Made by a program: the position numbers and the translations under genes. DNA of 63,293 nucleotides, counting the filler, from Reclinomonas americana ATCC 50394 (Eukaryota): assembly GCA_048213135.1 (NCBI GenBank). It is 12 parts of 12 records of this genome, joined end to end, with 100 filler letters (N's around TTAATTAATTAA, not from the genome) between each part and the next. Parts side by side here need not be neighbours in the genome. Positions count along the whole stretch, not along the records: positions 9,362 to 13,784 come from AFZH01022458.1; positions 13,885 to 22,552 come from AFZH01022459.1; positions 22,653 to 28,983 come from AFZH01022460.1; positions 29,084 to 31,124 come from AFZH01022461.1; positions 31,225 to 44,465 come from AFZH01022462.1; positions 44,566 to 48,275 come from AFZH01022463.1; positions 48,376 to 51,851 come from AFZH01022464.1; positions 51,952 to 56,285 come from AFZH01022466.1; 4 more parts are not named here. One strand, given 5' to 3'. Under the pieces are notes generated by a model, which saw only the letters and a program-made list of their open reading frames with translations, was not told the origin of the DNA and did no database searches. Shown here piece by piece: positions 11,101 to 54,599 of this stretch. Position 1 is the stretch's first letter; each line of letters begins with the position of its first letter.

Positions 11101-14100
11101 AAGTCGGGTGTGCTGGTGCGTGTACTCTTGTGTGCTGCTTACTGCTGTCGAGGTGAGATCCTTTACGTGTTGGTGTGTCGCCAGATCCGCAACTGCACCG
11201 TCACTGGCAATGCCGCCATTGGGAATGGTTAGAATACCAAACACTTCAGTGCTTCCTTCATTGTATGCACACGCTGACCAAGTGTGCTCTTCAGGGAGTG
11301 GAGGCGCCAATTGCACAGCATCTGGATCTTCGTTTGCCACGTATTGTGGCGGTGGCGGTTTCCTTGTGCCCACTACGTTTTCCGCGTCGGCCAATGTGGT
11401 GAGTGCACTGTGCTCCGAAAGAGAAAAGCACAAGAGTACCAATACGTTCTGAATATGTTTCTCCTCCTAAGACGGTGGACACGTGCCGTTTCACCTCCAA
11501 TGTGTCGTCGCGAAATGGAGCCGGCGGCGCAGGCTCTGTGCTGGGATACTCCGTCGGCGGATTCAATGGGGGTGGCGCGCTGCTTGTTTTCGGACCGGGC
11601 ATGCCTGCATCAAATACCGCACAGGCCGTGGTGAGGCACTCCAACTTTACGAACAACCAGTCGGTCGGCGATGGAGCCGGTGGCGATCGTACCGTGTCGC
11701 AGGGAGCGGGGAGTAGCTGGAATGGCGGTGGCGGGTTGCTGATGCTGAATCAGCCGTCGACTGTGTCCGACTGCACGTTTGTCGGCAACAGCGCCGTCGA
11801 TGCGGGCGTTGGCGGCCTGCGTGCACGCCGACGGCCGCGTTCGCTGGCCACACGCTTCGACTCGGGAGTGTTGTGTGGTGGTGGTGGCGCGCTGTTGCTG
11901 AGCGATGTGACACTCTCGTCGTCCAAGTTCTCGACCAACTCGGTGTCGTCGAGTGCGCCGCTAGTCAGCGCCGGTCGTGTGGGCGGCGGCGGCGGTCTCC
12001 TGCTGCACGATTCGAGTGTCGCCAGTGGGTGCGAATTCCGCTTCAATGCCGTGACGGGCCAGCTGGTCAGTGGCGGTGGTGCACTGCTGTCGGACGGTTC
12101 ACAGCTTTCCAGCAGTTCGGTGACGAGCTGCACCGCCGAGTACGGGGGCGGCGGCGTGTCGGCGAGCGGTGTCGATGTTGTGTTTACGACGGTTGATGTC
12201 GCTAGGAACACGGCGGCCAGCGGGTTCGGCGGTGGTGTGCTGGTGATCAATGTCGGTGCCTATGTGACACTCAGCGGTTGTCAAGTGCACTCCAACACGG
12301 CGCTGTACGGCGGTGGAGTGGCGGTGCAGAACGACCTCGCTGAGCTGGTGCTGGCGGCGCACACGACAGTCTCCGACAACACCGCCACCCACAACGGTGG
12401 CGGAGCACATCTCAGCAGCTCCTCTAAACTCACCGTCAACGATGAGCAAGTCGCCATCACGAACAACAGTGCAGTGCGCTTTGGTGGGGCCATATTTGCA
12501 GACTCGTCATCTTCCACAAATGTCAGTGGTGCGCTGGTGCAAGGCAACCGAGCGGCCTTTGGCAGTGGTCTGTACTCGACGGGCGAGACGTCGCACACGT
12601 GGAGCAAGGCGACGCTGTCGAGCAATTCTGCGGATCCGGCCGATGGTGGTGGTGTGTATGCCGATGGTGCATCGTCGATGCAAATGGCCAACTGCACGGC
12701 GTCCAGCAACAGCGCGGTGCTGGCCGGCGGTGCCATGCTGATTTCGCAACTCGCGACGGTGGTGACGTCGACAACACAGTTCACGGCCAACACGGCGAGC
12801 ACCGTCGGTGGACATGTGAGTGTCGGTGGTCGAGCACTGTGGACGGACAGTGGTAGCACGTTGAGCAGTGGCGGAGCGTTGTTGTGGGGCGGTGCAGTGG
12901 CGGTGGCCGGCAATGCCGGTGTGCAGCTGGTGCGCAGCCGAATTGTCGAGAATGCAGTGGACGGTGGCGGTGGCGGTGGTATCTCTATTATCGAGTCCGC
13001 CGCGGTGGCGCTGACCAATGTGGACATGATTGGCAACGAGGCGCAGCTGGGCGGCGGCGTGTATGTGGCGAATTCACCGTCGGTGTCCCTCAACGACACC
13101 AATCTGGTGGCGAATGTGGCGGATGCGGCTGGCGGCGGCCTGTTTGGCGGTGACGAGGCCGACATTACGTGCTCGCGATGTGTGTTCACGGGCAATGTGG
13201 CATCGACTGGCGACGGCGGCGGTGCCTCAGTGTCCAACAGTACCACGACGGCGTTTCTCAGCACGCGATTCGAGAACAATGTGTCGGGGGGTCGCGGCGG
13301 CGGTCTCGCTGTCAACATGACTGCCATACCGTCGACGGAGGCGGAGATAGCCGCCAATGCACTGGCCATTGGTGTGCGACTGGAGAGTGTGACGCTGACG
13401 GGCAATCGCGCCATGGCGCCGGTGAATGCCACGCACATGCTGGGTGAGGGTGCGGGTGGCGGCATCTATTGGAATGGTGGTGGAGATCCGGTGCACTTGA
13501 CAACGGTCGCGGCGGCGGTGGCGCAGAGTGGGGGGTTGGCGGCGTGGAGAGACGGGCATGGATTGCAGCTGTCGAATAACACGGCCACAAATGGGGCGGC
13601 GGCGGATTTGGGAAGCAGTTGAGTCGCGGAAGGGAAAGGGGGAGCGGGAAAAAGGGGAAGGGAGAAGGGAGAGGGAGAAGGGAGAGGGAGAAGGGAGAGG
13701 GGAGAAGGGAGAGGGGAGAAGGGAGAAGGGAGAAAGAGAAGGAGAAGGAGAGGAGAGGGAGAGGGAGAGGGAGAGGGAGAGAAGNNNNNNNNNNNNNNNN
13801 NNNNNNNNNNNNNNNNNNNNNNNNNNNNTTAATTAATTAANNNNNNNNNNNNNNNNNNNNNNNNNNNNNNNNNNNNNNNNNNNNGGGAGAGGGAGAGGGA
13901 GAGGGAGAGGGAGAGGGAGAGGGAGAGGAGAGGGGAAAGAAGAGAGATATAGAGATAGAGATAGAGAGTGAGGGCGAGATAGATAAAGCGAGAGTGCGGA
14001 AGAGTGAATTAGGGAGAGGTCGAGAGGAACTATCTCTCTGTTTGTCAAGTGTCTCTGCATTCTTGTCTTTTTTGAAACGAATGTGACGGAAGAACAAAGT

Positions 14101-52749: not shown

Positions 52750-54599
52750 ATTGCCACCTCTGCGACGACTCCATGCAACGCCTGTGCACGGCGCTCTCCG
52801 GCAACACCACGATCCACTCGCTGTGCCTTGCGCGTTGCGTTTCTCCCTTTCCTATCAACCTCCCCCCAATCGCGCTCTCACATCCGTCGTCTGCAGGCTG
52901 CGGCATCAGCGACACAGCACTGGCCTGCCTGTGCAAACTGCTAATAAGCAGCAGCTCTCGCATTCACTCGCTGGATCTGCGAGGTTTGTTTGCCACTCCC
53001 TCTGTGGTCTCCTCCTCTACGCTCACTTTCTCTACTCTTTCACTTTGTCTTCCATCTCTCCCCTTTCCACCTCCTCCCTTCCCTCCACTTCCCTCATCTC
53101 TCCTCCCTTTCCCTCCACCTCCATCTTCCCTTCTCCTCTCCCGTCCCCTTCCCCTTCCCGCTCCCTCTTCCCTTTCCCATTTCTCTCCCCCCTTCCCCCC
53201 TCTCCCCCTCACCTTTGCCACAGACAACAACATCACCGAGCTCGGCGTCCAATCACTCGCTCACGTACTGCGCGCCACAGCCGTGCTGCGGTACTTGGTG
53301 CTCAACGGTTTGCACTGTCCATTCCCTCTCACCCACTACTCACCCACTTCTAACTCCATCGCTGCTCAGGCAACAAGATTGGCGACTCTGGCCTCTCGTG
53401 CATCGCGGCGGCCGCCACAGAGCACAACTCACTCCGCACAGTGCTGTTGGAGGACACGGATGTGTCGTCGGCGGGGTTGGAGGACGTGGCCAGCGCCCTC
53501 GGCAACAACTTGTGGTCGTTGGTTGCGTGCTTCCACAGCCTCCTTTCACCCTCCCCTTTCTGCTTCATCTTGCTCTTCGACCTGCTCTCTCCTCCCTTGT
53601 TGGCGGTGCGACCCGTGCGCTCATATATCCTTTTTCCCATTTCGTGCAGCGGGTGCTTGGCCTCAGCAGTTACGCCTTGGCCCCCCCTCCCCATCTTTGT
53701 ATCACGCACGAGCCACTCACGAGTCTCACCATGCTGCTGCTCCCACAGAAAACATGCTGGTCATGGACGACGGTGCGGAGCACCTGGCCACTGCGCTGGA
53801 GTCCAACAAGTCGCTTCAAGTCCTCGACTTGTCATGTTGCGTGCACCAAATCACACCCTTTGCCCGTATGCATGTTTCTCACCGCACGCGCAGACACTGG
53901 CGTGGGCGACTCGGGCGCCGCCGCACTGCTGCAATCGCTGTGCGAGCGCAACTCATCGTTGGAGCGCCTCTTTTTGCGTCGTTGCGGACCTCGCTTAGTG
54001 CAAATGCATGTCTCCGTCTGCGTACACTCACGTGTACCGTCCGCAGACACATCGGCCGCCACCAACACAGCACAGGCGCTGGCCAAAGTCCTCGAGTCGC
54101 AGCACTGCGGCAGGCCGGTGACACGGGGTTGCGGATTGCAGTGGGTAGATGTGGCTGGCACGAGGATGCGCAGCGCCGATGGTTTGCAGAATGTTGTGCG
54201 GGTTTCCCACAGCTACTTGTACTAACATGGCGTGTTGTGCGCAGTCGAATTGCTGGCGGCGACGCTGAAACGGTGCGGCAATGCGAGTCGTCTACAGTCG
54301 CTCGGTACGTGCACCACATGCGCATGTGATGGACGAAGTCGCAGCGATCTGACGCTACACACAGACTTGCGTGACTTGTGGCGTGTCAAGGACGACGCTC
54401 TTCTGCATCTGGTGGAGGCTCTGGAATCGGGACGATCGATTCAGCACTTGCACGTCTCCTGTTTCGTTGTGATCGATTTCCTTCATCATGTGGTGCAGTT
54501 GCTCATTGTTTGCCCGCAGACTCACCGCAGCGACACGAGATTCTGGCGCGGATACAGCGGCTGATGGAGAGGAATCGCGGCGATTGTGACTTGTCATGA
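52750..54599 (+). CDS. RNI-like leucine-rich repeat protein (NLRC3/CARMIL-type repeats); 5' end not resolved
   Basis: Repeats such as IHSLDLR|DNNITELGVQSLA, LRYLVLN|GNKIGDSG and GAEHLATALESNKSLQVLDLS|YTGVGDSGA, mostly one repeat per exon; ends IQRLMERN..*. Confidence 0.85.

Follow-up and report, generated by a model that had tools for sequence, protein, structure and literature searches.

An abundant GTTGCGT donor class in Reclinomonas americana that looks like the usual 5′ splice signal moved by one base

Shifted and bulged registers in which the 5′ splice site (5′ss) pairs with U1 small nuclear RNA (snRNA) have been established experimentally in human cells, and in the account given by Tan et al. 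(2016, PMC4856993) 1.5% of 201,541 sites belong to the validated noncanonical registers, all taken together. As summarized there, all 5′ss/U1 pairs of the shifted register (Roca and Krainer 2009, via PMC4856993) are displaced by one position. In human cells noncanonical registers are rare exceptions, which make splice sites harder to predict and mutations harder to interpret. Here we describe introns that begin with GTTGCGT in a 63,293-nt stretch of DNA from Reclinomonas americana ATCC 50394 (assembly GCA_048213135.1), which is referred to below as the window. About one modelled intron in 7 appears to start in this way, and the heptamer looks like the usual start signal slid by one base, as if a register that is very rare in humans were in routine use. 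As in the human shifted-register sites described in PMC4856993, the GU at the cut would not face U1 C8/A7, and the exon base before the cut would take the role of canonical −2; those human sites are exceptional, whereas the displaced class equals the canonical GTGCG class here, with a mechanism deduced from sequence statistics only. The bulge +2/+3 register (Roca et al. 2012, via PMC4856993) also resembles the class in its GUU start, after which the bases canonical at +3 to +6 come one position late, but as outlined in that source it needs the canonical exon end −1G, which the GTTGCGT class as a whole does not have.

Outside humans, similar donors are those of the GTGCGT-type constrained introns of Mamiellophyceae, which combine an AG/G↓GTGCGT donor (an arrow marks the cut or intron position throughout) with a CTGAC-like branch, as the canonical class here does (Verhelst et al. 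2013, PMC3879977). The Micromonas branch lies 43–52 nt from the acceptor in that description, versus a median of 15–18 nt here, and mamiellophycean genes are intron-poor outside an AT-rich outlier region, whereas introns here are dense, with about 32 in a 9-kb gene; the passages of PMC3879977 on constrained introns mention no GTTGCGT class. Changed U1 arms are described in the preprint of Roy and Bowser (10.1101/2022.06.08.495308), where the Entamoeba arm AACAAAC matches GUUUGUU and the Mastigamoeba arm ACGUAC matches GUGCGC; the U at +3 of the former donor and the C at +4 of the latter both recall donors of the window. Entamoeba differs in having one near-universal donor (87.9–89.5% GUUUGU in the figures of that preprint) where we find two co-dominant register classes in a loose donor spectrum. 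Thecamonas and Mamiellales share the C at +4 with an unchanged U1 arm according to the same source. U12-type introns provide the idea of a separate donor class with its own snRNA reader and differ in donor, branch and acceptor, and diplonemids differ in their G/GTATG donors and rare branch motifs. Irimia and Roy (2008) is said to be a further source on the GTGCGT-type constrained introns of Mamiellophyceae. In an exact-motif text search of the literature, which covered neither figure logos nor supplements, GTTGCGT or GTTGCG stood in no splicing context among the matches listed; a prior description of the class in some species is possible.

The window consists of 12 contigs of about 2–13 kb joined by 11 linkers (2977–61747, e.g. 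31125–31224), each made of 44 N + TTAATTAATTAA + 44 N. Because the linkers join separate contigs, gene neighbourhood across them has no meaning. A preliminary description of this DNA had called GTTGCGT an abundant atypical donor class and listed 14 coordinates for it, at all of which the motif is present. Both strands together hold 28 copies. When the window was shuffled 100 times with its dinucleotides preserved, the copies averaged 11.3 and never exceeded 20, so that 0 of the 100 shuffles reached 28. We also asked, independently of any gene model, which GT-heptamers with ≥8 copies lie 38–130 nt upstream, on the same strand, of an intron 3′ signature, defined as CT[GCA]A[CT] for which the next AG lies no more than 40 nt away and forms a YAG (146 + 92 sites). 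GTTGCGT ranked first, with 15 of its 28 copies so placed versus 4.8 expected (z 5.1); the same test gave z 2.2 for GTGCGT and z 1.8 for GTGAGT. About 9 copies are non-donor, near the chance expectation. One of these, at 30760–30766 (+), lies within an exon of the MCU gene under an unbroken Pfam profile and is preceded by GT rather than GA. The excess of GTTGCGT is thus apparently concentrated at intron starts, and the heptamer is in all appearance a real and abundant donor class, as the preliminary description had proposed; enrichment, homology and the gene finder described next agree on this.

Random frames stay open for long in GC-rich DNA, so that open-frame bookkeeping by itself is uninformative. 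We built our own gene models with a donor-blind finder, which combines codon log-odds from seed frames with a bonus for branch plus YAG and a length prior; all GT and GC donors receive the same flat score. A second run replaced the flat score by a self-trained two-class donor model, and its results are partly circular and self-reinforcing. Only these two runs are used; free self-training was discarded for drifting into low-complexity 'coding' sequence, and a version without the 3′ signal for misplacing known introns. The donor-blind finder recovers 6/6 homology-defined introns of the carrier gene and 5/6 testable donors of the isovaleryl-CoA dehydrogenase (IVD) gene. The branch bonus and an intron composition model that is T/C-rich and takes effect at the first intron base enter the choice of donor.

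Among the 136 introns modelled by the donor-blind finder, 12 start with GTTGCGT where 0.46 would be expected (28 copies among 8,212 GT sites; p 8.5e-14), and 15 start with GTGCGT. The self-trained run has 18 GTTGCGT and 19 GTGCGT donors among 125 introns, the former spread over 6 genes on 6 contigs. GTTGCGT therefore appears to be about as common as canonical GTGCGT (11–18 versus 14–19 introns). The leading donor hexamers in the 114 donor-blind introns of ≤135 nt are GTGCGT (14), GTTGCG (12), GTGTGT (5), GTTTCG (4) and GTGAGT (4), followed by many singletons, and the +3 base of these introns is G in 49, T in 37, C in 15 and A in 13. A single near-universal atypical donor of the Entamoeba type is not found in this set, where GTGCGT and GTTGCG are co-dominant. 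GTTGCGT donors thus stand alongside ordinary GTGCGT and GTGAGT donors among the modelled introns, in agreement with the preliminary description. Position +4 is degenerate (GTTGCG 13, GTTTCG 4 and GTTACG 2 among the 136 introns), and the wider class GTTNCG covers 18/110 short GT introns in the donor-blind run and 25/103 in the self-trained run. Expressed as shares of modelled introns, GTTGCGT accounts for about 9–14% and GTTNCG for 16–24%.

At the level of single sites, seven of the 14 listed coordinates (17668, 24919, 35537, 38534, 39344, 46341 and 53836) were picked exactly as donors by the donor-blind finder, and the self-trained run picks 12 of the 14. The sites at 17786, 18091, 38987 and 41720 were picked by the self-trained run, while the donor-blind choice lay 21, 15, 12 and 54 nt away with the same acceptor. 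The intron at 40203 (66 nt, in frame and stop-free) was likewise picked by the self-trained run and was read through by the donor-blind finder. At 32613(−) the frames permit a 277-nt intron behind a 10-codon presequence exon, which neither run picked. At 31070 the Pfam match to MCU extends beyond the heptamer by about 4 residues, which is neutral to weakly against donor use there. Two related forms had also been put forward as donors. GTTACGC at 36847 was picked by the donor-blind finder, but the GTTGAGT at 13618 is unlikely to be a donor: its TGA is the stop of a 739-codon frame, purine-rich sequence lies downstream, and after another 167 nt the contig comes to an end. Beyond that list, further likely donors lie at 33955, 34188, 36104, 38205, 49036(−), 52834 and 53522, all of them except 52834 picked by the self-trained run.

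Removal of the introns at 24919 and 31927(−) restores frame and homology exactly. At 24919 the position is fixed by the alignment of RLGPGGG↓ILLVVF with five relatives (P0121–P0131). The intron at 49036(−) is supported by Pfam continuity, as the upstream exon matches the TLC profile up to position 122 and the downstream exon, from a few residues after its start, takes the match up again at 134. At 46341 an intron is required because the frames on either flank differ. The extent of the intron at 34188 is unreliable, since it lies within a low-complexity CT tract. For the large gene that holds 10 of the sites, a homologue search gave one match, to a low-complexity repeat protein, which was spurious.

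To compare consensus sequences, we took the short donor-blind GT introns and divided them into those with T at +3 (n=37) and the others (n=73). The other donors have G at +3 in 46, G at +5 in 43 and T at +6 in 37, whereas the +3T donors have G at +4 in 19, C at +5 in 20, G at +6 in 22 and T at +7 in 19. CG occurs at +5+6 in 18/37 +3T donors and at +4+5 in 2/37, versus 4/73 and 18/73, respectively, in the others; GT is found at +6+7 in 15/37 versus 1/73 (Fisher p for these CG and GT comparisons 4e-5, 2e-3 and 1e-7). Splitting the donors by their +3 base, as the preliminary description had suggested, thus reveals among the modelled introns of the window the canonical consensus shifted by one base in +3T donors.

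The exon side is displaced as well. The −1 base of GTTNCG donors (n=18) is A in 9, G in 4, C in 3 and T in 2, and that of GTGCG donors (n=17) is G in 13, T in 3 and A in 1 (p 0.007 for A and 0.002 for G). G at −3 is found in 11/17 GTGCG but only 4/18 GTTNCG donors (p 0.018). The same is seen free of gene models: GTTGCGT copies with an intron 3′ signature have −1A in 8/15 and −2G in 8/15, versus 1/13 each among the remaining copies (p 0.016). The class exists and is abundant, and its consensus is displaced by one base on the intron and the exon side alike. The two motifs G.G↓GTGCGT(GC) and GA↓GTTGCGT(GC) are thus, as far as their bases tell, one block with one changed base and the cut one base further upstream.

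Our preferred reading, to which we give somewhat less than an even chance, is that U1 snRNA pairs with GTTGCGT sites in a +1 shifted register. The 5′ signal would then be the lineage's canonical G.G↓GTGCGT moved by one base relative to the cut, giving GA↓GTTGCGT. In this register U1 position 9 would lie opposite +1G and position 10 opposite −1A, with position 8 mismatched with +2U, and the cut at the GU one base 'early' would be set afterwards by U6, U5 and Prp8. We infer that U1 is the reader of the class and that one U1 would serve both registers. A broader proposal is possible, although we lean against it: a two-register donor code in which U1, the same one or a position-8 variant, would mark about 1 in 6 introns in a register that lies one base off the cut, the displaced class being as common as the in-register one.

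Several observations weigh against the shifted register, which is proposed from sequence statistics. When donors were folded as duplexes against the textbook U1 arm as tabulated by Tan et al. (2016), all 18 GTTNCG donors were weak (+0.5 to −4.2 kcal/mol), and their registers were all-shifted in 5, bulge-like in 2, a 4-bp canonical stub in 3 and off-target in 8. The GTGCG donors formed a canonical-register duplex in 14/17, with −1.1 to −7.6 kcal/mol over all 17. Standard U1 by itself leaves the tight keeping of the full heptamer unexplained, and the exonic G preferences cannot pair with its G11. The rise of −2G, from 2/17 GTGCG to 7/18 GTTNCG donors, is not significant (p 0.12). Sampling is narrow: 10 of the 18 model-chosen sites fall in one 9-kb gene and 2–3 in paralogous leucine-rich repeat (LRR) units, all from a single 63-kb window. 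Finally, the finder's branch reward and T/C-rich composition model may introduce a slight bias to T-rich donors among in-frame alternatives.

That the standard arm reads the class poorly while the heptamer is strongly conserved suggests an adapted U1 arm or a variant. One form of this is a second U1 paralog, its arm changed at the base facing +1G (position 8, C to A), that would be a perfect partner for A↓GUUGCGU and leave G↓GUGCGU to the main U1. We consider such a paralog unlikely, although it predicts an identical displaced intronic and exonic consensus and accounts for the tight whole-heptamer conservation better than a mismatched helix does. Arms that co-evolved with atypical donors have a precedent in Entamoeba and Mastigamoeba, but the same preprint describes Thecamonas and five Mamiellales with +4 pyrimidine donors that retain the standard arm (10.1101/2022.06.08.495308), and the degeneracy at +4 is what a displaced loose motif would give rather than one perfect partner. 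A position-8 paralog would yield the same pattern as the shifted register, and sequence statistics do not separate the two; an Rfam scan of the window matched 0 families, U1 included. The preliminary description had seen an extra T at +3 and inferred either routine bulged pairing or a variant U1/U6 snRNA; in the first case U1 would keep its canonical register and the U at +3 (or +2) would bulge out. The one-base intronic displacement follows equally from such a bulge, the +2/+3 bulge register is validated in human cells, and the class members with −1G (4/18, e.g. 53522) fold in a bulge-like manner with the standard arm (2/18 bulge-like in the duplex tally). A bulge from the canonical helix keeps the exon register, however, and so predicts that −1G is retained, whereas −1G drops from 13/17 to 4/18 (p 0.002) and −1A climbs from 1/17 to 9/18. 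In Tan et al. (PMC4856993) this register moreover covers only 54 curated human sites of 201,541. Since the exon positions are displaced too, a +1 shifted register or a position-8-changed U1 fits better than the +3 bulge, which we hold to be quite improbable.

A reader other than U1 for both classes, whether through U6/U5 pairing or through a protein (U1C or a LUC7-type factor, for example), would agree with the weak pairing of the heptamer with the standard U1 arm in every register, and U5 loop 1 might accommodate the exonic purines at −1 to −3. Against this, the canonical class pairs well with the standard arm (14/17 in register), and a conserved signal of 7–9 nt that moves as a single block is expected of an RNA guide, so we see little likelihood in this explanation. 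Least probable of all is an artefact in which the sites are not donors at all but gene-model errors, compositional bias or inserted-T sequencing errors in GTGCGT donors. The gene models are home-made with junctions drawn from sequence, and the assembly is fragmented into 12 short contigs; nevertheless neither chance nor random T insertion into canonical donors is compatible with the model-free enrichment, the exact confirmation of two sites by homology and the difference at −1.

The −3 G of the canonical donors is an observation in its own right. It occurs window-wide in 11/17 GTGCG donors (for example at 38023 and 47692) and cannot pair with G11 of standard U1. C or A is usual at −3 in donors of other eukaryotes, and the G is possibly a sign of an altered U1 arm or of contact with U5.

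If the two-register code holds, this genome would be a natural system in which U1 recognition and cut-site choice are uncoupled genome-wide. A 5′ss code could then hold two registers stably, and hundreds to thousands of natural test cases would be available for the fixing of cut sites independently of U1. A predictable snRNA signature would follow, namely a U1 arm that suits GUGCGU, perhaps joined by another that is complementary to GUUGCGU. This offers a direct test of snRNA–intron co-evolution, of which few cases (Entamoeba, Mastigamoeba) are on record. Gene finders with a single donor matrix would mis-annotate a sixth of introns in such genomes; our donor-blind model displaced 4 of the 14 listed sites by 12–54 nt and read through one.

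In other respects the GTTGCGT introns match the other introns in length, branch, acceptor and composition. They are 57–128 nt long (median 65), and all 16 short ones end in YAG (CAG 14, TAG 2). A branch-like YTSAY motif is present in 15/16, its median distance to the intron end being 15 nt, a result that is partly circular, as the finder rewards the motif and the model-free enrichment test uses the same one. Local alignment of intron interiors gave mean scores of 7.68 for 120 pairs within the class, 7.73 for 1392 pairs of a class member with another intron and 7.65 for 3741 pairs among the others; because no sequence is shared beyond the signals, GTTGCGT introns are not introners. The introns are predicted to be ordinary U2-type GT-AG introns of an intron-dense microbial eukaryote of roughly 55% GC. 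We also considered minor introns. The U12 donor consensus is RTATCCTT, of which the window holds 2 copies versus 0.74 expected, neither at a GTTGCGT site. A U12 type was rejected for the class, as RTATCCTT is absent from its donors and the branch and acceptor are U2-type. The individual introns and candidates are listed in Table 1.

Table 1. Introns and candidate introns of the GTTGCGT class, with one canonical intron for comparison. Lower-case letters are exonic.
Feature	Coordinates	Strand	Support
57-nt intron, membrane-protein gene, gaag↓GTTGCGT	17668..17724	+	both finder runs; CTGAT branch-like motif, CAG acceptor
138-nt candidate intron, cttg↓GTTGCGT	17786..17923	+	in-frame alternative to donor-blind 17807, acceptor shared; self-trained pick
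94-nt candidate intron, ggaa↓GTTGCGT	18091..18184	+	in-frame alternative to donor-blind 18106, acceptor shared; self-trained pick
65-nt last intron, mitochondrial 2-oxodicarboxylate carrier gene, tgga↓GTTGCGT	24919..24983	+	homology-exact; donor-blind pick
Canonical comparison intron, MCU gene, tttg↓GTGCGT	30903..30969	+	Pfam MCU 3–113 in upstream exon, 115–151 in downstream exon
GTTGCGT near end of MCU gene's contig, 55 nt before linker (starts 31125)	31070..31124	+	
72-nt intron, IVD gene, gatc↓GTTGCGA (class variant)	31856..31927	−	homology, phase 1, LSVD↓PEFGG; donor-blind pick
Unverified 277-nt candidate first intron, IVD gene, tgct↓GTTGCGT	32337..32613	−	frames permit; no presequence homology
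70-nt intron, large RING-like gene (32877–41962), aggg↓GTTGCGT	33955..34024	+	both finder runs
Intron, 393 nt as modelled, further CAG 85 nt downstream, tgtc↓GTTGCGT	34188..34580	+	both finder runs; 3′ end uncertain
77-nt intron, gcca↓GTTGCGT	35537..35613	+	both finder runs; ACTGAC branch, CAG acceptor
64-nt intron, gttc↓GTTGCGT	36104..36167	+	in-frame alternative to donor-blind GC donor 36065, acceptor shared; self-trained pick
71-nt intron, ggag↓GTTACGC (related form)	36847..36917	+	donor-blind pick
82-nt intron, tttt↓GTTGCGT	38205..38286	+	both finder runs
70-nt intron, gcga↓GTTGCGT	38534..38603	+	both finder runs; GCTGAC branch
65-nt candidate intron, caac↓GTTGCGT	38987..39051	+	in-frame alternative to donor-blind 38975, acceptor shared; self-trained pick
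62-nt intron, ctca↓GTTGCGT	39344..39405	+	both finder runs
66-nt candidate intron, in frame, stop-free, tcga↓GTTGCGT	40203..40268	+	self-trained pick; GCTGAC branch, CAG acceptor
66-nt candidate intron, tcga↓GTTGCGT	41720..41785	+	in-frame alternative to donor-blind 41666, acceptor shared; self-trained pick
65-nt intron, gaga↓GTTGCGT	46341..46405	+	both finder runs
65-nt intron, TLC-domain gene, gaga↓GTTGCGT	48972..49036	−	both finder runs; Pfam TLC continuity
63-nt candidate intron, LRR unit boundary, gcgc↓GTTGCGT	52834..52896	+	LRR repeat pattern HSLCLAR↓CGISD; picked in neither run
128-nt intron, LRR gene, gttg↓GTTGCGT	53522..53649	+	both finder runs; probably paralogous to other LRR-unit introns
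58-nt intron, LRR gene, tcat↓GTTGCGT	53836..53893	+	both finder runs

The window has a GC content of 52–60%, with microsatellite-like CT/GA/CA tracts between genes. Pfam and homology identify genes for a mitochondrial 2-oxodicarboxylate carrier, IVD, MCU, an EF-hand MICU-like protein, a TLC-domain protein, thymidylate kinase, an RNI-type LRR protein and WD40 proteins. The best database matches of the carrier are 61–66% identical (transcriptomes, dictyostelids, Naegleria, Nuclearia and fungi), none being closer than 66%. Searches with IVD and WD40, a cluster look-up and an atlas search yielded nothing more closely related. In metagenomes we found 8 related carrier loci, all distant and AT-richer (36–47% GC), and their 4 GTTGCGT copies are not donors.

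The RNI-type LRR gene (52784–54245, +) has a phase-1 intron at each repeat-unit boundary, and all of its donors are +3T: GTTTGT, GTTTGC, GTTGCGT, GTTACGC, GTTGCGT, GTCGTTGCG or GTTGCGG, and GTTTGC. These introns are probably paralogous and copied along with the repeat unit. The IVD gene contains a GC-AG intron, AG↓GCGAGC...GTGCAG, at 31694–31752 (−), which is fixed by homology (AHS↓NLC); the donor-blind finder put its GC donor 12 nt downstream, at 31740. Directly before the start codons of the carrier and membrane-protein genes (23690–23752 and 17500–17552, +) there is a branch-like motif, a pyrimidine/CA tract and an AG, which could be 5′ untranslated region introns or spliced-leader acceptors. 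Long genes with GGxGG-type repeats, polymorphic-membrane-protein-like by eye, occupy 3313–13622 (+), and their many modelled introns belong to uncertain models. Five intron-less WD40 genes stand among the intron-dense genes (54769–55824, 56386–56927, 57181–58254, 58479–59546 and 62260–63291, all +); for the one queried (57169–58251), the best relatives are metagenome and cyanobacterial-type WD40 proteins at ≤56% identity.

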